A model generated the notes under the pieces. That model saw only the letters and a list, made by a program, of their open reading frames with translations, did not search any database and was not told the DNA's origin. Position numbers and translations under genes: made by a program. A stretch of 64,000 bases of DNA from Candidatus Poribacteria bacterium (GTDB taxonomy: Bacteria; Poribacteria; WGA-4E; WGA-3G): the NCBI GenBank assembly GCA_965205015.1, contig OZ242029.1:5344001-5408000 (forward strand), read 5' to 3'. Shown here one piece after another: positions 16,476 to 45,068 of the stretch. Numbering within the stretch: position 1 is the stretch's first letter; each line of letters starts with the position of its first letter.

Positions 16476-16787
16476 CTAATCGGTGGACGTGCTCTTGGAT
16501 TCGCTACTTGTATCGGTTTTCGTTTCTTTTTTCTCGCCTTTATCCGATGACGTGCTTTTGCCTGATGACTCGCTTTTATCCTTCTTCGCTGATTCTTTAT
16601 AGCCGTCACTTCGGTAGTCTGTAATATAGAATCCGGAGCCTTTGAAAATCAATCCTGCACCTGCTCCGATGAGCCGCTTCACCTGACCACTGCACTCTGG
16701 ACATTCCTCGATTGCGGGAGCGGTAATGCCCTGAAACCGCTCGAATCGGTTGTCGCATGCGAGACACTTATACTCGTATGTGGGCAT
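16476..16787 (-). CDS. FmdB family zinc-ribbon protein
   Basis: MPTYEYKC..C...CPEC...FKGSGFYITDY followed by an S/K-rich tail. Confidence 0.92.
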   Translation of the reverse strand: MPTYEYKCLACDNRFERFQGITAPAIEECPECSGQVKRLIGAGAGLIFKGSGFYITDYRSDGYKESAKKDKSESSGKSTSSDKGEKKETKTDTSSESKSTSTD

Positions 16788-16993
16788 ATAGAGTTATCCC
16801 CCTTTTGGATGTATTTTGCGGACAAAACTTCTTTTTCCATGTAGGAGCGAGTGTTTTTGCTTGGGTATTTCCCCACGCTCGCGACCTCTGACTGTCGGAA
16901 TAAAAAGGTTGTTGATAAAAAGATCGTATTCTGATAAATTTTAATCGTTCCACGTACGAAAGTCAAGCAAATTTTTTCGCATTGGAGTTTTTT

Positions 16994-18352
16994 ATGTTTC
17001 GCCTTCCTATTGATTCTGAGAGTTTCCCGCTCGGCAAGGGACCGATGGTCATGCTCATTCTGTTTCTTGTCTCTACGCTTTTCATCTTCGGGCGTTCCGA
17101 GGAGGCGGGTGAGAAGCTCGAATTCTGGATTTTCGCCAACACGCACTACGAGGAATACCAAGCACGCGTGCCTATCTTTGAGGCGCAGAATCCAGGGGTT
17201 AACGTCCAACTCATCAATTTCGGCGGCACGATGCATGATAAACTCCTCGCTGCAATGTTGTCCAACTTCGGTGCCCCCGATCTCGTTGAGGTTGAGATTA
17301 CATCCATCGGTCGGTTTCTCAAAGGGGCAATTGACGAAGTCGGCTTTGTTGATCTCCGTCCACGTTTGGAGCGTGAAGGGTGGATGGAGAAGTTGGTTGT
17401 GAGTCGGTTCACCCCCTGGTCCTACCGGGGTCGGATTTACGGCATTCCACACGATTTACATCCCGTCGTACTCCTCTACCGAGATGACCTCTTTAAAGCC
17501 GCTGGTGTTGAGATGACAGAGGTTGAGACATGGGATGACTTCATCGCTGCCGGAAAGAAAGCGACACGCGATCTCGATGGTGATGGTAGAATTGACCAGT
17601 ACGCAATCGTGTTAGACCGACGCACGGAGAGCGACTATTTCAGTCTACTCCTCCAACAGGGCGGGGGATTTTTCGACGAAGCGGGCAACGTCATTATCGA
17701 CAGTGAACTTGCGATTGAGACGTTGGAATTTTTCACGGCGTTGTTCAATGAACATAAAATTGCGACCCCGGTGTACGGCACATGGCACGGCGATCCGAGT
17801 AATTTTGCCGCGATGCAGGATGGCAAGATTCTCTCTATTCTCTCACCCGATTGGTACGTCGGTATTCTCAAAAGCCAGGTGCCGCAGATGTCTGGTAAAT
17901 GGAAGGCGATCAGCATGCCGGCGTGGTATCCCGGTGGTAGGCGGACCACGACGCGCGGTGGCACGATGATTGGGATTACGAAGCAGTCCAAAAACCCAGA
18001 TCTCGCATGGGAAGTCCTCAAGTTTACCTATTTTGACAGACCCGGTCTTGTCAACCGATACGAGACGACCCGAATTATTCCGCCGCTTAAATCGGCATGG
18101 GATGCACCTATCTTTAAGGAGCCTGATGTCTACTTGGGGGGACAACCGCTTGGCGAGCTGCTTATCGAACTGGCACCTGATATGCCGCCGCGTTATCAGA
18201 ATCCGTACTGGTCAGAGGGGGCGGATCTGCTCAACGATGCAATTTTCGCGGCTGTCACCGAGAAACAGACACCCAGAGAGGCATTAACCGATTTGGCAGA
18301 GAAGGTCCGAGCACTGATTGCCAAAGACAGGGGTAGATGGGGAGACATGTAG
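16994..18352 (+). CDS. Carbohydrate ABC transporter substrate-binding protein
   Basis: APDL, YGIP, LLYRDDLFKAAG and TWDDF (SBP family 1). N-terminal hydrophobic anchor. Confidence 0.88.
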   Translation: MFRLPIDSESFPLGKGPMVMLILFLVSTLFIFGRSEEAGEKLEFWIFANTHYEEYQARVPIFEAQNPGVNVQLINFGGTMHDKLLAAMLSNFGAPDLVEVEITSIGRFLKGAIDEVGFVDLRPRLEREGWMEKLVVSRFTPWSYRGRIYGIPHDLHPVVLLYRDDLFKAAGVEMTEVETWDDFIAAGKKATRDLDGDGRIDQYAIVLDRRTESDYFSLLLQQGGGFFDEAGNVIIDSELAIETLEFFTALFNEHKIATPVYGTWHGDPSNFAAMQDGKILSILSPDWYVGILKSQVPQMSGKWKAISMPAWYPGGRRTTTRGGTMIGITKQSKNPDLAWEVLKFTYFDRPGLVNRYETTRIIPPLKSAWDAPIFKEPDVYLGGQPLGELLIELAPDMPPRYQNPYWSEGADLLNDAIFAAVTEKQTPREALTDLAEKVRALIAKDRGRWGDM

Positions 18353-18530: not shown

Positions 18531-19430
18531 ATGAGAAGAAAACGCACAACGAACCTGTTTTGGAACCAACAACAGAAAATCGCTCCCTATCTTTTTATCG
18601 CTCCATTTTACCTGCTGTTCGTCATTTTTATGGGCTATCCGCTCATTTCGTCGCTCGTGATGAGCCTTTATGAAATGCGTGGGTTCCAAAGTCGGATATT
18701 TGTTGGCATCGGTAACTTCACGGATCTGTTCCGAGACCCAATCTTCTGGAAATCGCTAAAGAACACTGCCTATTTCGCCGCAGGCACCCTCACCCTCCAA
18801 TTGCCGATTGCCTTATTGTTAGCGATTCTGCTTAACTCCAAGTTTGTCAAGGGGAAGAATGTCCTGCGTCTCGCCTTTTTCGCACCCGTCCTCGTCGCCG
18901 GTGTCTTCGTTGCGATTATTTTCAACCTCGTCTATGATCAACGGGCGGGCTTAGTTAACCAGGAATTCGTTCTCTTTGGCAAAGAGATCGGTTGGCTGAA
19001 TGAGGAGAAGTATGTGATGCCAGCAGTTATCCTCACCGGCGTTTGGCAATGGGCGGGGTTCAATATGATCTATTTTTTGGCGGGGTTACAAGGTATCCGA
19101 CAGGAGTTATATGAAGCGGCAGCGGTCGACGGTGCGAACTGGTGGCAGGCGTTCCTCCATGTCACACTCCCATCTTTGCGACCCGTGATAGCCTTCGTTT
19201 TCGTCGTTTCCATGATAGGCTCGCTCCAACTCTTCGACCTTCCGTTCATTTTAACGAACGGCGGTGAACCCGCGGATGCCGGCTCGACGATCGTCATGTA
19301 TCTCTACAAAAACGGGTTTCAGTTCATGCGTCTCGGCTATGCGGCGACAATCGGATGGGTGCTGTTTTTCATTATTGCGGTTATCTCAATTGTCCAACTG
19401 AAATTGCTCGGTATTTTCCGAGATGAATAG
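18531..19430 (+). CDS. Carbohydrate ABC transporter permease (MalF-like)
   Basis: FVGIGNF and LAGLQGI..ELYEAAAVDGA EAA loop. Confidence 0.92.
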   Translation: MRRKRTTNLFWNQQQKIAPYLFIAPFYLLFVIFMGYPLISSLVMSLYEMRGFQSRIFVGIGNFTDLFRDPIFWKSLKNTAYFAAGTLTLQLPIALLLAILLNSKFVKGKNVLRLAFFAPVLVAGVFVAIIFNLVYDQRAGLVNQEFVLFGKEIGWLNEEKYVMPAVILTGVWQWAGFNMIYFLAGLQGIRQELYEAAAVDGANWWQAFLHVTLPSLRPVIAFVFVVSMIGSLQLFDLPFILTNGGEPADAGSTIVMYLYKNGFQFMRLGYAATIGWVLFFIIAVISIVQLKLLGIFRDE

Positions 19431-19490
19431 GAGTAAGCACACGCCGTTGTGCCGTCAGGATAGGAGTAGGCACACGCCGTTGTGCCGTCA
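19427..19490 (+). repeat. 33-bp tandem direct repeat of REP family A
   Basis: ATAGGAGTARGCACACGCCGTTGTGCCGTCA occurs twice. Confidence 0.88.
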
Positions 19491-19508
19491 ACTCTGGAAG
19501 GAAAAACT

Positions 19509-20216
19509 TTGAAAATACTACCCGCCATCGATCTACGCGGTGGCAAGTGTGTAAATTTAGTGCAGGGTATCGCGTCGCAGGAGACGATCTTCTCGGACGC
19601 ACCTGTGGAAATGGCGTTGCGATGGCAAGCCGAGGGGGCGGAATACTTGCACCTCGTGGATCTGGATGGCGCGTTTCAGGGTGAATCGGCGAACCTCCAC
19701 ATCGTCAGCGAAATCGTAGCTGCGCTTGAGATTCCTGTCCAGCTGGGCGGTGGTATCCGCAGCATGGAGCAATTAAAAGCGGTTCTGGCGTTGGGCGTGG
19801 ATCGCGCCATTTTAGGCACGGTTGCACTCAAACAACCGAGTTTAGTAAAACAGGCGTGTACCGAATACGGCGCGCGTGTCACCGTCGGCATTGACGCCAG
19901 AGATGGAAGGGTCGCCACGGACGGGTGGTTAGAGGTCTCCCAAAAATCTGCTGTCGAATTTGCCGTAGAGTTATCAGACGTCCAAACGCTTATCTACACC
20001 GACATCAAAAGCGATGGCATGCTCAAGGGACCCAATGTTGACGCAACCGCTGATATGATTGATGCCGTATCTGCGGATGTAATTGCTTCGGGTGGGGTCA
20101 CGTCGCTGGCTGACATTAAGGCTTTGAAGCAGATCGGTGCCAGCGGCGCGATTATCGGGCGCGCGCTATATACCGGTGACCTCGCGCTGTCGGATGCGAT
20201 TGCTACCGCGCGTTAG
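19509..20216 (+). CDS. hisA: ProFAR isomerase HisA
   Basis: PAIDLRGGKCV, LHLVDLDGA, QLGGGIRS, YTDIKSDGML and ASGGV. TTG start. Confidence 0.95.
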   Translation: MKILPAIDLRGGKCVNLVQGIASQETIFSDAPVEMALRWQAEGAEYLHLVDLDGAFQGESANLHIVSEIVAALEIPVQLGGGIRSMEQLKAVLALGVDRAILGTVALKQPSLVKQACTEYGARVTVGIDARDGRVATDGWLEVSQKSAVEFAVELSDVQTLIYTDIKSDGMLKGPNVDATADMIDAVSADVIASGGVTSLADIKALKQIGASGAIIGRALYTGDLALSDAIATAR

Positions 20217-20243
20217 AGAAACATAACTTGGGTAGATAGAGTA

Positions 20244-21410
20244 TTAGAGATCACCCACGCCAGTCACAACGCCGAATCCGATTCGCCCCCCCATCTTTTT
20301 TACTTCAAACCGTGTGCCAACCTCCATCACCAAGGGTAGATCAAGCGTAAGAGAGACGTGTGCATAAGTCCCTGGTGTAAAAAGCGAAAGTCCTTGCGGA
20401 AGTTTTAGATGCGCTGGCATGTCGATACCCCATAGATAGATATCAGGTCTGTCGTTTTCGATGAGCGGGATATGTGTCCCGCTCTCTTCGTGTGTCAGCA
20501 GATAGATGAGCGCCGTAAATTCGGAATGTGATTTGACGGTCTTTGGGGCGCAAAGTACCTGTCCAATGGACAGCCAGTCGGGTTCGGATTCGACGCACAC
20601 TTCATCTTCCTGTATGCTGAGAACCCGCGTTTTAATCCTGTCCCCTTTACCCACAATGTCCACTGCTTGTCCGACAGCGAGGTGTCCCTGCACAATATCG
20701 CCACGGACGGATACGCTTTCTTTGGTTTCCTCAGTGATTTCATGGATCGGCATGATAAGCGGTAACCGGGCGGTATCCACAGGCGCAGGCATTGCCCGAT
20801 TCATGGCGAAGATAAGGTCAACAATCGGTTGCCACTGCGTGGAGGTGATACTGTGTCCCTTGTAGGTTAATGCCTTGCCCGCGTCTCCAACGGTTATTGG
20901 GGTGGTCTCTTCATTCCAGCCACACGCGTTCAGAAGTTCTGCCATCTCCTGTTGGCAAATGTCTATGAGTTCATCGTCATTCGGGATACCACCTGTGTTC
21001 AGAAAGGAGAGCACTGTCGGGAGGTGCATCTGGCTGGCAAGACGGAGATGTGCTTCGGAATCAGGTGTGATCCCCTCGACCGCATTTACGATCCAAATCG
21101 CGCCTTGGATTGCAGGCGAACCGCTGACCAGCATTTTGACAACGTCGATGTGTGTCTCGCAATCGATGTGAGTATAAAGTTTACCGCTGGTTTCATACGA
21201 TATTGCGCGGTAGGTGATGCCAACCCCTTCTCGGATGGGGTGACTGGTCGGGGTTTGTGCCTCAAAGTCGCCATCTCCGTTGGTATGGATCGCACCGATT
21301 CTCGCGACAACTTTCGCTATCGCCGTTGTCAACGTTGTTTTGCCGTGTCCATCCGCACCGAGGGTACAGATAGGCAACCTGTTATGTGTATTTTCTTTTC
21401 GCTCTGTCAT
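20244..21410 (-). CDS. Divergent EF-Tu-like three-domain protein (degenerate GTPase)
   Basis: Collinear with EF-Tu over its whole length: GHGKTTLT, GIT, YETSGKLYTHIDC, GQVL, and RFEVKKMGGRIGFGVV at the C-terminus. Confidence 0.85.
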   Translation of the reverse strand: MTERKENTHNRLPICTLGADGHGKTTLTTAIAKVVARIGAIHTNGDGDFEAQTPTSHPIREGVGITYRAISYETSGKLYTHIDCETHIDVVKMLVSGSPAIQGAIWIVNAVEGITPDSEAHLRLASQMHLPTVLSFLNTGGIPNDDELIDICQQEMAELLNACGWNEETTPITVGDAGKALTYKGHSITSTQWQPIVDLIFAMNRAMPAPVDTARLPLIMPIHEITEETKESVSVRGDIVQGHLAVGQAVDIVGKGDRIKTRVLSIQEDEVCVESEPDWLSIGQVLCAPKTVKSHSEFTALIYLLTHEESGTHIPLIENDRPDIYLWGIDMPAHLKLPQGLSLFTPGTYAHVSLTLDLPLVMEVGTRFEVKKMGGRIGFGVVTGVGDL

Positions 21411-21566
21411 CTCTTTTCTCCTGATCGATGTAATTTTTTTTCAATTTCCATTTCATTGTAGCATAAAATCAGGAATTGGGCAATAAAGGAAAAACTTGCC
21501 AAAGGGGCTAATGCGTGTTAGACTATTAACACTTACGGCTTAGTCCAAAACTCCGAAAATAAAAAA

Positions 21567-22073
21567 ATGTCAAACCAAAAAATCTATCAACGTAGCAAAC
21601 TTGCATCCATCCTTCAGCAAGCGAGAGCAGACGGCACCGTTGTTGTCACCACCAACGGTTGTTTTGATGTCCTACATTTGGGGCATCTCCGTTACCTTCA
21701 GGCAGCGCGTCAACTTGGGGATCTGCTCGTAGTAGCAGTTAACAGTGATAGTTCAGTCCGACACCTCAAGGGTGAAAACCGTCCACTCGTTCCTGAAGAG
21801 GAACGCGCGGAGATGCTCGCCGGGTTGGAATGCGTCGATTACGTCGTCATCTTTCCAGAGTTAACACCCATCTCCTTGCTTTCTGAACTCAAACCGAATA
21901 TCCACGTTAAAGGTGGCGACTATCAACTCGAACAACTCATCGAGAGGGAGGTCGTTGAGGCAAATGGTGGTCAGGTGATCGTCGGTTTGAACGTGCCGGG
22001 GAAGTCCACAACCCATCTCATCGAAGTGATATGTGAGCGATATAAAGGCACTGGTGCCGCAGACACGCCGTAG
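21567..22073 (+). CDS. rfaE2: D-glycero-beta-D-manno-heptose 1-phosphate adenylyltransferase (RfaE domain II)
   Basis: TNGCFDVLHLGH, NSDSSV..LKG..RP, KGGDY and STT. Confidence 0.92.
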   Translation: MSNQKIYQRSKLASILQQARADGTVVVTTNGCFDVLHLGHLRYLQAARQLGDLLVVAVNSDSSVRHLKGENRPLVPEEERAEMLAGLECVDYVVIFPELTPISLLSELKPNIHVKGGDYQLEQLIEREVVEANGGQVIVGLNVPGKSTTHLIEVICERYKGTGAADTP

Positions 22074-22123
22074 GGCAATTTTAGAATTAATAATGAGAGC
22101 ACTGAGGAGGCAATCATAACACA

Positions 22124-23494
22124 ATGCAGATAAACGATTCATTACGTCCCGCCGACCTAAAGCCGCAGATTGAGAGACTTTTTGAATGCTCAGGTCAAAA
22201 GATTTTAGCGATAGAAGACACATGGTCCCCCGAAAAAGGAACCCCCGTTTTTACCGTTGCTGGCACCTACACAACGCGCGGCTGGACCGAGTGGACACAA
22301 GGGTTTCAATTCGGCGCCGCGATCCTTCAATTTGATGCCACCGGCGATGCGCAGTTCCTTGAGATCGGTAGACGGAACACGATTGAGAAAATGGCACCCC
22401 ATGTGACACACATCGGTGTCCACGATCACGGTTTCAATAATGTCTCTACCTATGGTAACCTCCGGCGTTTGATGCGTGAGGATGTGATTCCGTGGAACGA
22501 TAGCGAGATGGATTTCTATGAACTCGCACTGAAAGCCTCCGCTGCCGTGCAGGCGAGTCGCTGGACGCGCATTAGTGATGGGACAGGATATATCGCTTCC
22601 TTCAACGGACCGCATTCACTCTTCTCAGACACTATCCGGTCTTTGCGAGCTTTAGGACTTGGGCATACCCTCGGCGCCGTGCTAATGGGTGAGGGGGATG
22701 TCGCTATCAGTCTGCTGGAACGTTTGCTCCAACATTCGCAGGCCACTGCAAACTATAACGTTTATTACGGCGAAGGACGTGATGCATTCGACCTGCGTGG
22801 ACGGGTGGTGCATGAATCTATCTTTAACACGAACGATGGAAACTATCGTTGTCCAAGCACGCAGCAGGGGTATTCACCCTTTACAACGTGGACCCGCGGG
22901 CTGGCATGGATTGTTACGGGGTACGCCGAGCAACTTGAGTTTTTTGACACGCTACCTGCAGATATGCTTGAACCTTACGGTGGATATGAACTGGCGACAG
23001 CACACATGCGCAAAGCCGCGGAAGCCACTGCGGATTTCTATATTGAGAACACAGCACAAGATGGGATTCCGTATTGGGATACCGGTGCGCCCGGTTTAGC
23101 AGAACTCGGCGATTATTTAACAGTCCCCGCGGATCCCTATAACGATCTTGAACCTGTGGATAGTTCCGCCGCGGCGATTGCGGCGCAAGGCTTGATTCGA
23201 TTCGGCAACTATCTCAGAAAGCATGGCGAGTCGGAGGCTGGAGATTCCTATTATCAAGCAGGTTTAACGGTCGCGAAGACGCTCTTCGCTGAACCGTATC
23301 TCTCTGAATCCGATACGCATCAAGGGTTGTTGTTGCATTCGGTATATCACCGTCCGAATGGATGGGATTATGTGCCGGAGGGCAGGAAGATTCCGTGTGG
23401 CGAGGCTTCCATGTGGGGGGATTACCATGCCCGCGAACTCGCAGTCCTCTTATGGCGGGAGATAAACGAAAAGCCGTATTTGACGTTTTTCTAA
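22124..23494 (+). CDS. Glycoside hydrolase family 88-like (unsaturated glucuronyl hydrolase)
   Basis: WTQGF, HDHGF, QGY...TWTRGLAW, DSSAAAIAA and WGDY. Confidence 0.85.
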   Translation: MQINDSLRPADLKPQIERLFECSGQKILAIEDTWSPEKGTPVFTVAGTYTTRGWTEWTQGFQFGAAILQFDATGDAQFLEIGRRNTIEKMAPHVTHIGVHDHGFNNVSTYGNLRRLMREDVIPWNDSEMDFYELALKASAAVQASRWTRISDGTGYIASFNGPHSLFSDTIRSLRALGLGHTLGAVLMGEGDVAISLLERLLQHSQATANYNVYYGEGRDAFDLRGRVVHESIFNTNDGNYRCPSTQQGYSPFTTWTRGLAWIVTGYAEQLEFFDTLPADMLEPYGGYELATAHMRKAAEATADFYIENTAQDGIPYWDTGAPGLAELGDYLTVPADPYNDLEPVDSSAAAIAAQGLIRFGNYLRKHGESEAGDSYYQAGLTVAKTLFAEPYLSESDTHQGLLLHSVYHRPNGWDYVPEGRKIPCGEASMWGDYHARELAVLLWREINEKPYLTFF

Positions 23495-23547: not shown

Positions 23548-24999
23548 ATGAGCAAAATACGAGACACACAGCACTCCAAGGTCGAAATCGCTGTCAAGAA
23601 TTTTGGTCCCATTGCCGAAGCCAACATTGATCTGCGTCCGCTGACGGTGTTTGTTGGTACCAGCAACACAGGGAAAACGTATTTCTCAACACTAGTCTAT
23701 GTACTACATAGTATCTCCGGGGGGTTCGCTCCGTTTCCTTTGCAAAACCTTACTAATGCTTCCTTAGTTTCTGTAGACCGTGAACTTAAGAGAAAGTACT
23801 TTTTTTCAAGGCATCCTGAAGAGAAAGAGGCAATAAGGATACTACTTGAGGCAACACGAAAGGCCCTTGAAAAATTGATAGCAAGTCGTTCTCCATTCAA
23901 GTTTTCGGATCTCCCCGAAGTGTTGCGCAACCACCTACAATCAAATCTCACAAGCCCTGAGGTTATTCGCACTGAGCTCAATCGCTGTTTTGATTTTAAA
24001 TCGCTTTCAGACCTGATACGGTTTACCGATAGTTTCCATTGTAAGATGAAGGTTTCTCTAAAGGTAAGTGCGAAAAATCAAGAATGGTGGAACTTCAATA
24101 TGATAACCACCAAATCAGACCTCGTCGTGGACGGCGCAGTCAATGCTGATTTGGTACTTACGCCTGAAGATGAGGTTTTATGGAATTCAACGCCTAATGA
24201 TGAATTCACTGACTATGCCCCAAATGGTCGAAGAAGGTATTATTTGCCAGCCTCTCGCAGCGGCATCATTCAAAGTCATCGGATCATAGCAAGCTCCCTT
24301 ATGGAGCGAACTATTAGGTCAGGCGGTCCGGAAATTCCGACGCTTTCATCGGTGGTTGTAGATTTCATGAAGCAACTTCCTCTTTACGAGGAAAGTGAAT
24401 CTAATGACACAATACTTGCTATTGCCGACGCGATAGAATCAGAGGTGTTAGCGGGAAAAGTAATCGCAAGACCTTTACTGAGCGGCTATCCGGAGTTTTT
24501 CTATCAACCGCACGGAGCAAAAGCGGAAATTCGCTTAAATCAAACTTCCTCAATGGTATCTGAACTTGCTCCGCTTGTTCTATTTCTGCGAAGTCTTGTT
24601 CATCCTGGGGATACGCTTATCATCGAGGAACCGGAAGCACATCTGCATCCCGGTGCCCAAGCAGACATGGCAGTTATCCTCGCTCGCTTGGTCCGCGCGG
24701 GCGTAAGAGTAATCATAACGACCCATAGCGATTGGCTACTTCAGGAAATCGAAAATCTGGTTCTCGAGGGACTATTAGAGGAAGATACCGATGAACTTGC
24801 AAGTTGGTTGTTACCGAAAGAGGTCGGCGTATGGCATTTCCAAAAGGACGAAGCAGTAAAGGAAATTCCCTTTAAACCCAGAGAAGGCCTCTCTCCAGAG
24901 GATTATGAGGATGTTGCCGAAGGACTTTACAACCGCTCTGTGAATCTCCAACAGAAATTAGAGAAACAGGCAGGTAACAGCGAACGTGAACCTGCATAA
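23548..24999 (+). CDS. ABC/AAA_15-AAA_21-type ATPase
   Basis: NFGPI, Walker A GTSNTGKT, YLPASR, Walker B IIEEPEAHLHP and TTHS. Confidence 0.88.
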   Translation: MSKIRDTQHSKVEIAVKNFGPIAEANIDLRPLTVFVGTSNTGKTYFSTLVYVLHSISGGFAPFPLQNLTNASLVSVDRELKRKYFFSRHPEEKEAIRILLEATRKALEKLIASRSPFKFSDLPEVLRNHLQSNLTSPEVIRTELNRCFDFKSLSDLIRFTDSFHCKMKVSLKVSAKNQEWWNFNMITTKSDLVVDGAVNADLVLTPEDEVLWNSTPNDEFTDYAPNGRRRYYLPASRSGIIQSHRIIASSLMERTIRSGGPEIPTLSSVVVDFMKQLPLYEESESNDTILAIADAIESEVLAGKVIARPLLSGYPEFFYQPHGAKAEIRLNQTSSMVSELAPLVLFLRSLVHPGDTLIIEEPEAHLHPGAQADMAVILARLVRAGVRVIITTHSDWLLQEIENLVLEGLLEEDTDELASWLLPKEVGVWHFQKDEAVKEIPFKPREGLSPEDYEDVAEGLYNRSVNLQQKLEKQAGNSEREPA

Positions 25000-25480
25000 C
25001 GTTCTTGAGGAGGTTCGACAGTGGGTAGGCAATAGAATAGCAACATCCTATATCAAAGAAGGATGTCGTGTCTCTATGGCTAATATACCATCAGCGCGCG
25101 TTGTGTTGGACGTAGATCGTGCGTTTCCAACGGACAGAGCAAGGACAAACCAATGCGATTTTGTTCTCTTCTACATTGACACTACCCAAAACAGACTCGT
25201 CGGGGTTCCAATGGAGCTTAAAAAAGGCAGCGTTAATGCATCAGAAGTGATTGCCCAGTTGCAAGAAGGCGCGCGCATCGTTGATAACCACACGCCACAT
25301 GATGTTGAGATGGATCTTGTTTTTCTTCTGGTCCACGGTGCTGGTATGCATAGAAGTCAGCGAAACCGACTTAGAACTGCCAGAATCAGGTTCCGAGGCA
25401 CAGAATTTCCGATTAATACGGCGCGATGTGGTCACCAAGGAAACTTAGCACAAGCTTTAGCAAAGTCAACGAAACGTTGA
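24986..25480 (+). CDS. Hypothetical protein, possible PD-(D/E)xK nuclease
   Basis: QCDFV...MELK...QL pattern. Overlaps the end of the ATPase. Confidence 0.6.
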   Translation: MNLHNVLEEVRQWVGNRIATSYIKEGCRVSMANIPSARVVLDVDRAFPTDRARTNQCDFVLFYIDTTQNRLVGVPMELKKGSVNASEVIAQLQEGARIVDNHTPHDVEMDLVFLLVHGAGMHRSQRNRLRTARIRFRGTEFPINTARCGHQGNLAQALAKSTKR

Positions 25481-43796: not shown

Positions 43797-44903
43797 ATGT
43801 CCTTTAATGCAAAATCCTTAGTCTCCTTACGGAGTTGGCTTTTTTATGCAGAAGTGGTGGCAGTCATCGGTTTTGTCGGACTTGCATTTTTCTATATTCG
43901 ACGGGGTACAGCGGGACCCGAATCCCCACCGCTGTCACAGGTAGAGGCTTTCATTCAGCAGGCAGATATCCTCTATGAGAAACAGGATCTCGCCGATGCT
44001 GCCCTTTACTATTGGCAGGCATTACGAGCGTTGGAAACGGAGGATAAAGTCCAGGATATCCGCATAAACGGCAGCCTCCAGACGGGGGCGGAAGTTCGTT
44101 TACGTGCCAATCTCCGCATTGCGGAGATCTATTCACAGAGTAATTGGTTGAAAGATGCGAAGGCGCGTTTGGAATATGCGGCACGCATTCAACCTGAACA
44201 TGCCGGAGTCCGTCTCTTACGCGGCAAACTGTTTCGTGATGAAGGGTTGCTCGCGGAAGCCACCGAAGAATTCCTTGCTGTGCTCAAAAGCACCCCAAAC
44301 AATGCTGAAGCACACTATCTCCTCGGTGTGCTCTATCAGGGGAGTAAGCAGTTTGAACAAGCCGCTAAACACTATGGAAAAGCAATTGAAAACGATCCGG
44401 AGCTGCTAAGCATCCCTTCTGAAAAAGCCCCTATCGGTATCTTGGCTCGCCTTCAGTTGTCGAGAACGTATGCCAGAATGCTACAGAATTATCAGTTCCT
44501 TGATAGGGAATTCACCGAAGAAGATTTGGCTGAGGTTACGCGCTTGGAATCGGCGTCGATTGCTCTCTTGGAGCAGGCGCATGAAAAGATGCCTGAAATG
44601 AACGAGGTTGTTGACGATCTCGTTCGTCTGCTCTTTTCCCGCGCCTCTGCGCTTGAGCGAGAGGATATCGAAACGCGTCAGTATGTGGATGCGCTACAGG
44701 TTTATGAGAGGATTGTCGAGCTTGATCCCGAGGAAGTTCGGGCGTGGGAACGGATGGGTGAAATTTATGCGAGTTTCCTGGGTGATAAAGAAGCTGCTTT
44801 GGAAGTGTACCGCAAGGTGTATGCAATTGAGCCGCACCCGACTGTTTTAGCAAATGTCAAATCGCTGGAGGAGGATGTCGCCGCTGAAATGGAAAGCCGA
44901 TGA
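43797..44903 (+). CDS. Membrane-anchored TPR protein
   Basis: N-terminal TM helix and repeated TPR patterns such as AEAHYLLGVLY...A..HY.KAIE.DP. Confidence 0.85.
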   Translation: MSFNAKSLVSLRSWLFYAEVVAVIGFVGLAFFYIRRGTAGPESPPLSQVEAFIQQADILYEKQDLADAALYYWQALRALETEDKVQDIRINGSLQTGAEVRLRANLRIAEIYSQSNWLKDAKARLEYAARIQPEHAGVRLLRGKLFRDEGLLAEATEEFLAVLKSTPNNAEAHYLLGVLYQGSKQFEQAAKHYGKAIENDPELLSIPSEKAPIGILARLQLSRTYARMLQNYQFLDREFTEEDLAEVTRLESASIALLEQAHEKMPEMNEVVDDLVRLLFSRASALEREDIETRQYVDALQVYERIVELDPEEVRAWERMGEIYASFLGDKEAALEVYRKVYAIEPHPTVLANVKSLEEDVAAEMESR

Positions 44904-44966
44904 GAGGATTTGAACCTCCGACCTACTGATTACGAATCAGTTGCTCTTCCACTGAGCTACACCGGC
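44895..44966 (-). tRNA. tRNA-Thr (CGT)
   Basis: GCCGGTGTAGCTCAGTGG...ACTGA-TTCGTAA-TCAGT...GGTTCAAATCC...CATCGGCT. No CCA is encoded. Confidence 0.95.
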
Positions 44967-44995
44967 TTAGCAAATTATTGTGATTAGAAAGGGAG

Positions 44996-45068
<73 letters not shown>

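Follow-up and report, generated by a model that had tools for sequence, protein, structure and literature searches.

An EF-Tu-derived protein family of the Poribacteria with a degenerate nucleotide site and an altered aminoacyl pocket

The locus and its gene

The window analyzed here is a stretch of 64,000 nucleotides from the genome of a Candidatus Poribacteria bacterium (contig OZ242029.1, positions 5,344,001 to 5,408,000), and the subject of this work is one gene within it, which codes for a 388-residue paralogue of the elongation factor EF-Tu (Table 1). An earlier reading of the DNA letters (below, the sequence-only reading) had seen in it a derivative of EF-Tu that works outside elongation and whose nucleotide site is degenerate or altered. 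This general view held up, and relatives without a P-loop that are nevertheless under selection lend it further weight. None of the three outcomes that the sequence-only reading had named as refuting it arose: orthologues exist, the substitution ratio dN/dS is far from 1, and no characterized GTPase family takes in the protein. Almost certainly, the gene is functional, is inherited vertically and belongs to an EF-Tu-derived family found across the Poribacteria, which coexists with tuf, SelB and EF-Ts in the related genomes examined and went through a long burst of fast change before slowing down.

The uninterrupted open reading frame (ORF) had been placed with exact coordinates and lies on the minus strand; reading the same interval on the plus strand was ruled out by the many stop codons in that frame. 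A ribosome-binding site, also predicted earlier, is present as AGGAG 8 nt before the ATG. Further upstream lies a promoter-like site (TTGCCC, a 17-nt spacer and TGnTACAAT), recognized as a match to the consensus only. Both promoter hexamers and the ribosome-binding site align in nearly all of the 33 loci compared, even in those 64–69% identical, with one locus (L030) giving no alignment in the promoter region. Within positions 19000–23000, no RNA element was matched by Rfam at E ≤ 1. A terminator scan was negative. As had been claimed, the gene stands alone outside any ribosomal operon: its neighbors are hisA (19482–20216), convergent, on the downstream side and a heptose-1-phosphate adenylyltransferase gene (rfaE domain II), divergent, on the upstream side. 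Overall, the gene looks monocistronic.

Table 1. Features of the EF-Tu-like gene and its product, in window coordinates
Feature	Position	Strand	Basis or remark
Coding sequence of the EF-Tu-like paralogue (P0001), ATG start, 388 aa plus stop	20244..21410	-	family and PDB matches; intact ORF in 32/32 loci; ratio of nonsynonymous to synonymous substitution rates (dN/dS) 0.09
AGGAG ribosome-binding site	21418..21422	-	8 nt 5' of ATG; kept in the alignment of 33 loci
Sigma-70-like promoter, TTGCCC, 17 nt, TG-n-TACAAT (extended -10)	21455..21483	-	9/12 consensus match
G domain, residues 13-182	20865..21374	-	Pfam GTP_EFTU; AlphaFold2 (AF2) model
G1/P-loop GADGHGKT, residues 18-25	21336..21359	-	fits GxxxxGK[ST]
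Switch-I equivalent, residues 40-68	21207..21293	-	remodelled; own conserved Q-x-P-x-x-H-x-I; predicted local distance difference test (pLDDT) below 50
G3/switch II DCETH, residues 83-87	21150..21164	-	Thr in place of the DxxG glycine
G4 NTGG, residues 138-141	20988..20999	-	replaces NKxD
Helix D equivalent, residues 144-160, DDELIDICQQEMAELL	20931..20981	-	E144, L145, E152 (E. coli numbering) invariant
G5 GDAG, residues 175-178	20877..20888	-	replaces GSAL
Domain II equivalent, residues about 215-290	20541..20768	-	unrecognised by Pfam GTP_EFTU_D2
Site of 14-residue deletion, aminoacyl/A76-pocket hairpin, residues about 262-276, VLSIQEDEVCVESE	20583..20627	-	
Domain III, residues 291-385	20256..20540	-	Pfam GTP_EFTU_D3; family-specific THIPL, LW, KKM motifs

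Relationship to EF-Tu

The likeness to EF-Tu from domain I to domain III, as stated in the sequence-only reading, extends over all three domains. The NCBIfam EF-Tu models align with the window protein end to end (213–219 bits against cut-offs of 449–522), and EF-Tu chains of the PDB match it over the full length (E-values of 1.8e-58 to 1e-44). Pfam recognizes GTP_EFTU (3.7e-19) and GTP_EFTU_D3 (1.8e-12), with no match to GTP_EFTU_D2 in the window protein at E ≤ 0.1. Judged by these comparisons, the resemblance far exceeds chance. The protein is still not filed as EF-Tu, because it fails the equivalog score (213.1 bits with TIGR00485, under the cut-off of 522.4) and also differs in G3, G4, G5 and the aminoacyl pocket. 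The canonical tufs of related genomes reach 718–727 bits with the same model. No characterized family claims the protein: beside its low score with the EF-Tu equivalog, it scored 33.5 bits against a cut-off of 242 for SelB (TIGR00475), 22.1 against 336 for CysN/NodQ (TIGR02034), and 44.9 and 33.9 bits with two EF-1alpha models; none of the PADLOC-DB 2.0 families matched at E ≤ 0.01. Its identity to the tuf of related genomes is 30–32%, and the paralogue is less acidic, with an isoelectric point (pI) of 5.0–5.3 vs. 4.5–4.7 for poribacterial tuf. The canonical poribacterial EF-Tu proteins themselves (L033–L037, from genomes G001–G005) are very acidic, with a net charge of about -30 to -36.

An AF2 model of the window protein, computed from a 25-row alignment (A1), had a pLDDT of 74.8 and a predicted template modelling score (pTM) of 0.66, and was low only at residues 1–9 and 40–68. 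EF-Tu ranked first in the Foldseek search with this model (E 2e-35). The template modelling score (TM) was 0.80–0.85 to GDP-form or open-form EF-Tu entries and 0.52 to 1ha3, which we take to be the aurodox-bound, GTP-like form of EF-Tu.

Nucleotide site

Aligned with E. coli tufA and five poribacterial tufs, the window protein has all of the motif changes listed in the sequence-only reading: GHVDHGKT has become GADGHGKT, DCPGH has become DCETH, NKxD has become NTGG, and GSAL has become GDAG. Two of its remarks hold in part. The P-loop does differ from GHVDHGKT, but in the window protein it is intact, as it still matches GxxxxGKT. The catalytic His is indeed kept in DCETH, but it is not conserved throughout the family.

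The motifs were counted over 49 members, namely the window protein, 32 from close loci and 16 from deep lineages, a set in which the close clade is over-represented. The G1 pattern GxxxxGK[ST] is retained in 48/49, and the DxxG glycine in a single member, with Ser or Thr at the G83 position in 45. His84 is retained in 40 members and is otherwise Y, S, A, D or Q. Within G4, N135 is kept in 48 members, K136 in 8 and D138 in 7; full NKxD occurs once (NKAD in G056), and the variants NK[AST]E, NQ[ST]E, N[IV]HN and NTxx go with clades. The Ser at the S173 position is replaced in all 49 (Asp in 47, Asn in 2). Moreover, D21 is Gly in the paralogue.

A pseudo-GTPase has the fold of a G domain with degenerate G motifs and has lost nucleotide binding and/or hydrolysis. 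The window protein keeps the G-domain fold, and its G3, G4 and G5 are degenerate; on these structural and sequence grounds it is a candidate pseudo-GTPase, in which the intact P-loop may still allow nucleotide binding. The Asp of NKxD is the guanine-specifying residue. In most lineages, the one of the window included, a nucleotide or phosphate is probably still bound at the intact P-loop with relaxed specificity for the base, and would serve there as a structural cofactor and not as a switch.

The same residues could be read in favor of a specialized delivery factor with altered nucleotide specificity (ATP or any nucleoside triphosphate), in which the Asp at S173 replaces the base contacts of D138 and whose cargo for the ribosome would be non-aminoacylated (deacylated tRNA, for instance, an RNA resembling tRNA, or a protein that mimics it). 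The frequent retention of the P-loop, His84 and N135 and the nearly constant Asp at S173 would suit such a factor, as would the Ser/Thr found where the switch-I Thr would fall and the constraint on the switch-I equivalent (dN/dS 0.076). In addition, EF-Tu is known to bring the protein Balon to ribosomes, going by the titles of PDB entries 8rdw and 8v9l. However, the DxxG glycine is gone in 48/49 members, and the replacement of His84 in 9/49 includes close relatives of the window gene. A search for the eRF1_3 domain (PF03465) was negative in all five related genomes (0/5), a weak test, as Balon may escape that model. Together with the evidence from the tRNA-facing surface and from the subclade without a P-loop (below), these points make a delivery factor unlikely.

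Aminoacyl pocket and conserved surfaces

Collapse of a domain II segment, also noted from the letters, was confirmed by the alignment as a gap of 14 residues at the aminoacyl hairpin of the window protein, the exact placement of which is ambiguous. The hairpin, which bears N273 and L277 in E. coli, is deleted in the window protein and is occupied by low-complexity inserts in other clades. Judging from the alignments, this site is now a point where insertions are tolerated. The longest insert seen (a Pro-, Ser- and Gly-rich stretch of about 60 residues) sits exactly at the lost hairpin in G141 (L061), and another member (L059, G111) has an insert of about 17 residues ahead of the G5 strand. The residues H66, E215, D216, F218, E259 and N273 of E. 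coli, which we take to form the aminoacyl/A76 pocket of EF-Tu, do not survive in the family: the first five are replaced throughout, and N273 is either replaced or deleted.

The tRNA-facing side of domain III is remodelled. The positions of R288 and Q329, presumably contacts to the tRNA backbone in EF-Tu, have become I/V/P and D/E, respectively, while H319 and a basic residue at R377 are kept. A side that is remodelled and yet invariant, with H319 and the basic R377 position retained, is what a delivery factor might show, but the loss of the R288 and Q329 contacts argues against it.

Over 24 diverse rows, the ones without a P-loop included, 37 columns are invariant. They include YETSG of the beta2-beta3 hairpin, K89, E144, L145 and E152 of helix D, and W-x-PIVDLI; VG-x-GDRI-x-T and E-x-x-W in domain II; and H-x-P, D, LW and K-K-M in domain III. 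Of the columns conserved to at least 90% in a 20-row set, 63 equal the tuf consensus and 44 differ from it. Among these 44 are H313, which equals H319 of E. coli, three new Trp and two new Cys.

A subclade without the P-loop

Four members (L056 from G147, and P0204–P0206) form a subclade in which the P-loop is lost, with G---EKSN in its place in L056. P0205 and P0206 are 48–49% identical to L056, and both are without N135; D80 is lost in P0205 and retained in P0206. Neither of these two matched any Pfam family at E ≤ 0.1. The model of P0206 (pLDDT 82.4, pTM 0.82) had its best structural matches among open forms of EF-Tu (E 2e-29, TM 0.70–0.76). Between two genes of the G147 type, taken from metagenome contigs, there are 58 synonymous and 39 nonsynonymous differences, which gives a dN/dS of 0.186. 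The lineage without a P-loop is, thus, still under purifying selection, which argues that its conserved job needs no nucleotide there. This persistence, with N135 lost in P0205 and P0206 and D80 in P0205, is also what a nucleotide-driven delivery factor would not lead one to expect.

P0206 belongs to a cluster of 141 members, the one named member being a poribacterial 'hypothetical protein'. P0205 and P0206 can be described as a 'dark' family, the EF-Tu origin of which is visible only via intermediates.

Selection, distribution and origin

Close relatives of the gene were found at 32 loci in genome contigs, all from poribacterial metagenome-assembled genomes and 64–90% identical. The ORF is intact in all 32, with a length of 385–388 aa and an ATG start. 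By the Nei-Gojobori method, 355 of the 528 pairs were usable (0.05 < dS < 1.5), and their median dN/dS was 0.090 (range 0.056–0.317). Calculated by part, the three domains and the switch-I equivalent gave 0.076–0.098. In ten pairs among five genomes, dN/dS was 0.03–0.08 for tuf and 0.08–0.14 for the paralogue, the dN of which was 1.4–3.2 times that of tuf.

A ratio of about 0.09 is far from the value of 1 that the sequence-only reading had named as the mark of a decaying pseudogene, and the gene is not a pseudogene. Degenerate G3, G4 and G5 motifs and a score under the EF-Tu cut-off are the features that a decaying tuf copy or a chance ORF would have in common with it. They are outweighed by the intact frame at every close locus, the purifying selection, the presence in 137/150 genomes (below), the conserved promoter-like site and ribosome-binding site, and a fold predicted with fair confidence, so that this explanation has practically no weight left.

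Coexisting translation factors were examined in five related complete genomes (G001–G005). A canonical tuf, for which a check elsewhere had been proposed, is present once in each of them and adjoins an EF-G-like hit; the window has no canonical tuf. The paralogue is likewise present once in each, with 188–211 bits in four genomes and in two pieces (149.8 and 67.6 bits) in G002. A third, longer match of the EF-Tu model (about 115 bits) is SelB, which scores 338–349 bits with its own model in all five. EF-Ts is single in all five and of a short, 197-aa type with TDFV kept. The EF-Ts gene (L088–L092) adjoins rpsB in at least one genome (L088).

Orthologues, the search for which had been proposed, are plentiful. 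Among 333 matching proteins, the best 120 are all 80–96% identical and 385–398 aa long; source names exist for few of the matches, and those present read 'Candidatus Poribacteria bacterium'. Searched with a profile built from 20 paralogues (A2), 147 of 150 Poribacteria genomes gave a match at E ≤ 1e-20. The best match was of paralogue grade in 137 (E ≤ 1.1e-83, at least 282 bits), compared with at most 243.5 bits for the listed canonical tufs under the same profile; ten genomes had tuf-grade matches only (1e-40 to 1e-54), and three had none. EF-Ts was found in all 150 genomes, and its identity to the EF-Ts of G001 served as a rough proxy of distance. The paralogue was present in 0/10 genomes at an EF-Ts identity of 62% or less, in 4/6 at 64–68% and in 133/134 at 69% or more. 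The sole exception in the top band (G094) is a highly fragmented genome, and the genomes without the paralogue are the most distant by this measure.

A maximum-likelihood tree of 36 rows (30 paralogues, five poribacterial tufs and E. coli tufA, with 23 near-identical paralogues of the window's clade left out) grouped all paralogues together (100/100), set apart by a stem of 1.28+1.28 substitutions per site; the tree does not settle the base of this clade. The single clade on a long stem, taken with the distribution, indicates one origin of the family, inside the crown of the phylum or at its base, then fast change and a later slowdown. The family descends from bacterial EF-Tu and is inherited vertically. 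As far as the available source names and the phylum scan go, it would be restricted to the Poribacteria. Another locus from the metagenome scan (L104) was a canonical EF-Tu caught by chance and was excluded.

Poribacteria inhabit dense sponge communities, a setting that might favor a decoy or guard, i.e., an EF-Tu mimic that intercepts toxins or phage proteins aimed at EF-Tu. Interbacterial toxins do bind or modify EF-Tu, as indicated by the titles of PDB entries with Tse6 and CdiA. One more toxin, Tre-Tu, ADP-ribosylates D21 of EF-Tu and docks on helix D (PMC9825190); the paralogue has Gly in place of the D21 target and keeps helix D. On the other hand, the gene stays at the same chromosomal site within a clade, is carried by nearly all genomes of the crown and is inherited vertically, unlike defence genes with their patchy occurrence; it matches no PADLOC family, and there was no relative among 22 pattern matches in viral contigs. 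With about 30% identity to tuf and most surfaces changed, the protein would also be a poor mimic. A decoy function is, therefore, very unlikely.

In the ESM Atlas, one homologue (P0029) gave only generic EF-Tu/EF1A look-alike clusters. The nearest one (score 0.96) has 77 members described as 'GTP binding translation elongation factor family', 95% of them viral (Nucleocytoviricota), with GTP_EFTU_D3 in 34% of members and no D2 listed. It may be another degenerate EF-Tu/EF1A-like lineage and is mentioned as a lead only.

Genomic context

The arrangement with hisA and rfaE domain II was considered as a possible sign of an operon partner and rejected, the synteny being limited to the window's clade. 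The neighbors in deep lineages are unrelated to each other (enolase-like, HAD, NamZ, DUF3500, ADH, M20 peptidase, RmuC, PhyH, hisD). In one deep clade (G044), hisD converges on the EF-Tu-like gene (L081, 9488–10792), and at the remaining deep loci no his gene lies within about 8 kb; the convergence of hisA and hisD on this gene is probably a coincidence.

A setting among metabolic and envelope genes (hisA, rfaE domain II and ABC transporter genes in the window, varied enzymes in the deep lineages) could point to an EF-Tu fold recruited outside translation, either as a metabolic regulator, much as CysN is in sulfate activation, or as a chaperone-like or cytoskeleton-associated protein. Its conserved surfaces would in that case contact some partner other than the ribosome. 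The 44 conserved columns that differ from the tuf consensus, with their new Trp and Cys residues, and the less acidic pI would agree with such a role. But no neighbor is conserved over the deep lineages, so no pathway is implied, and the only outward-facing surface of EF-Tu that stays invariant is helix D, the docking site for the translation apparatus. A role outside translation is, thus, improbable as well.

Several other genes of the window deserve a brief record. A two-gene insert at 23548–25480 (+) looks like a variable defence islet. Its first gene codes for a 483-aa AAA_15/AAA_21 ATPase with best PADLOC matches to PD-T4-4_A (2.8e-36), PDC-M47A (1e-31) and NsnB, and the second is an overlapping ORF of 164 aa with a weak match to PDC-M47B (0.002). 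The insert is absent between the flanks in seven related loci (L006, L008, L013, L020, L021, L025 and L031), and where present, it is 39–71% identical vs. 85–96% for the flanks. A 456-aa ORF at 22124–23494 (+), without a match in Pfam, NCBIfam or PADLOC, is 91–96% identical in 27 related loci and absent from L022, L026, L027, L029 and L030; it is better conserved than the EF-Tu-like gene two genes away. An ORF of 257 aa at 16679–17452 (-) has no family match and is 41–74% identical in related loci. It runs antisense across the start listed for a solute-binding-protein ORF (16982–18352, +); probably one of these two starts has been misplaced, unless the minus-strand ORF is no gene at all. RNA genes were found in the window at one place only, 44894–45068 (-), where tRNA-Thr(CGT) and tRNA-Phe(GAA) stand in tandem.

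Possible role

Two things bear on the question of function. The pocket for the CCA end is dismantled, the DxxG glycine and the NKxD aspartate are gone, and His84 is dispensable, which argues that the role in elongation is lost. A subclade without a P-loop persists under selection, which argues that a GTP/GDP cycle cannot be needed for the conserved function. Going by these sequence features, the paralogue would more probably than otherwise no longer work in elongation and would act independently of a GTP switch. The best overall explanation is that it became an EF-Tu-derived binding module outside elongation, a reading to which a probability of roughly 0.5 can be given.

How such a module might work can be outlined tentatively from the alignments and predicted models. 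The domains would be held in an open, GDP-like arrangement, and the protein would dock through its invariant surfaces, namely helix D, the YETSG hairpin, the GDRIKT and EPxW loops of domain II and the remodelled tRNA-facing side of domain III (THIPL, LW, KKM). The likeliest partners would be EF-Ts or the bL12 stalk, which would make the protein a regulator or competitor in the translation-factor cycle. This more detailed picture is possible, with the odds somewhat against it. Helix D of EF-Tu is the docking site for EF-Ts and the C-terminal domain of L7/L12, and the exchange L148A reduced ribosome association five-fold (PMC9825190, PMC5770553). In the paralogues, the L148 position is Ile or Met, and E152 is invariant.

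A number of observations weigh against the binding-module reading or its details. Structural constraint might account for part of the conservation of helix D. At both positions that align with H84 and H118, which we assume to flank the pocket for Phe insertion by EF-Ts in EF-Tu, the residue varies within the family, which speaks against classical exchange catalyzed by EF-Ts. Over 12 deep-lineage loci and the window, no neighbor other than the gene itself is conserved, and thus no partner is hinted at. The good retention of the P-loop (48/49), D80, N135 and Ser/Thr at the G83 position (45/49) suggests that nucleotide binding still matters in most lineages. Finally, the open conformation of the AF2 models may be a bias of the method.

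Taken one step further, the binding module could be a phylum-specific protein built on EF-Tu and frozen in a GDP-like state, which would neither carry tRNA nor cycle GTP but sit on the bL12 stalk or on EF-Ts via helix D and throttle the supply of elongation factors. Setting the translation rate, or entering dormancy, in this manner would be a mechanism new to bacteria, here in slow-growing symbionts. This extension is speculative and rather doubtful. If true, the repeated, independent erosion of the nucleotide site (NKxD to NKxE to NTxx, and the P-loop loss in one clade) would represent a natural series from GTPase to pseudo-GTPase.

Few proteins are as conserved or as well studied as EF-Tu, and here most of a phylum maintains, under strong purifying selection, a second EF-Tu that has been deeply rewired. 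Within the family, the nucleotide site is lost by natural degrees, up to members that escape Pfam altogether. If the partner of the binding module belongs to the translation apparatus, this would be a new regulatory layer of bacterial translation; if it lies elsewhere, a core translation factor would clearly have been co-opted for different work. Being small, soluble-looking and candidates for expression in E. coli, the proteins make a tractable system for asking which surfaces of EF-Tu work without the GTP switch. In addition, hundreds of entries labelled 'hypothetical', 'GTP-binding protein' or 'elongation factor Tu' would gain an annotation.

Comparison with known systems

No description of the family was found in the literature, in a search that did not extend to supplements, including the subfamily tables of PMC4342817. 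In the accessible part of a proteome preprint (10.64898/2026.10.20.760564), this protein is not told apart from EF-Tu. Multiple copies of bacterial tuf are nearly identical, according to PMC1780047. With canonical EF-Tu (tufA/tufB), the paralogue shares the full-length, three-domain architecture, the P-loop GxxxxGKT, D80, N135, the acidic/hydrophobic pattern of helix D and many core Gly and Pro residues (63 columns equal to the tuf consensus). As opposed to it, the paralogue has no DxxG, NKxD or SAL, its aminoacyl pocket is deleted, its domain II escapes Pfam, and its gene looks monocistronic and lies away from fusA.

Closer in kind is actEF-Tu, of the Streptomyces Tuf3 type, likewise a clearly distinct EF-Tu-like paralogue without gene conversion with tuf. 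A passage of a 2015 survey on translational GTPases names no other bacterial subfamily of this kind and describes the actEF-Tu proteins as condition-specific translation factors (PMC4342817). The poribacterial family differs in having lost the GTPase and aminoacyl-pocket determinants and in belonging to another phylum, a distinction drawn from that description.

SelB and CysN/NodQ are alike in joining an EF-Tu-like G domain to beta-barrel domains and in having specialized, non-canonical roles. SelB has about 600 aa, with a C-terminal winged-helix extension that binds the selenocysteine insertion sequence (SECIS), and both SelB and CysN retain NKxD. The window protein, with its 388 aa, has no C-terminal extension, and a separate, true SelB is present in all five related genomes.

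The nearest parallel in mode of working, not in family membership, is found in Ski7 and Snu114. Ski7 uses a translation-factor fold as a binding scaffold, with a GTPase cycle that is degenerate or unused. The same is described for Snu114 (PMC7192624). Both are eukaryotic, stem from the eEF1A and EF-G lineages and have the exosome/Ski complex and the spliceosome as partners, whereas the poribacterial family belongs to the lineage of bacterial EF-Tu.

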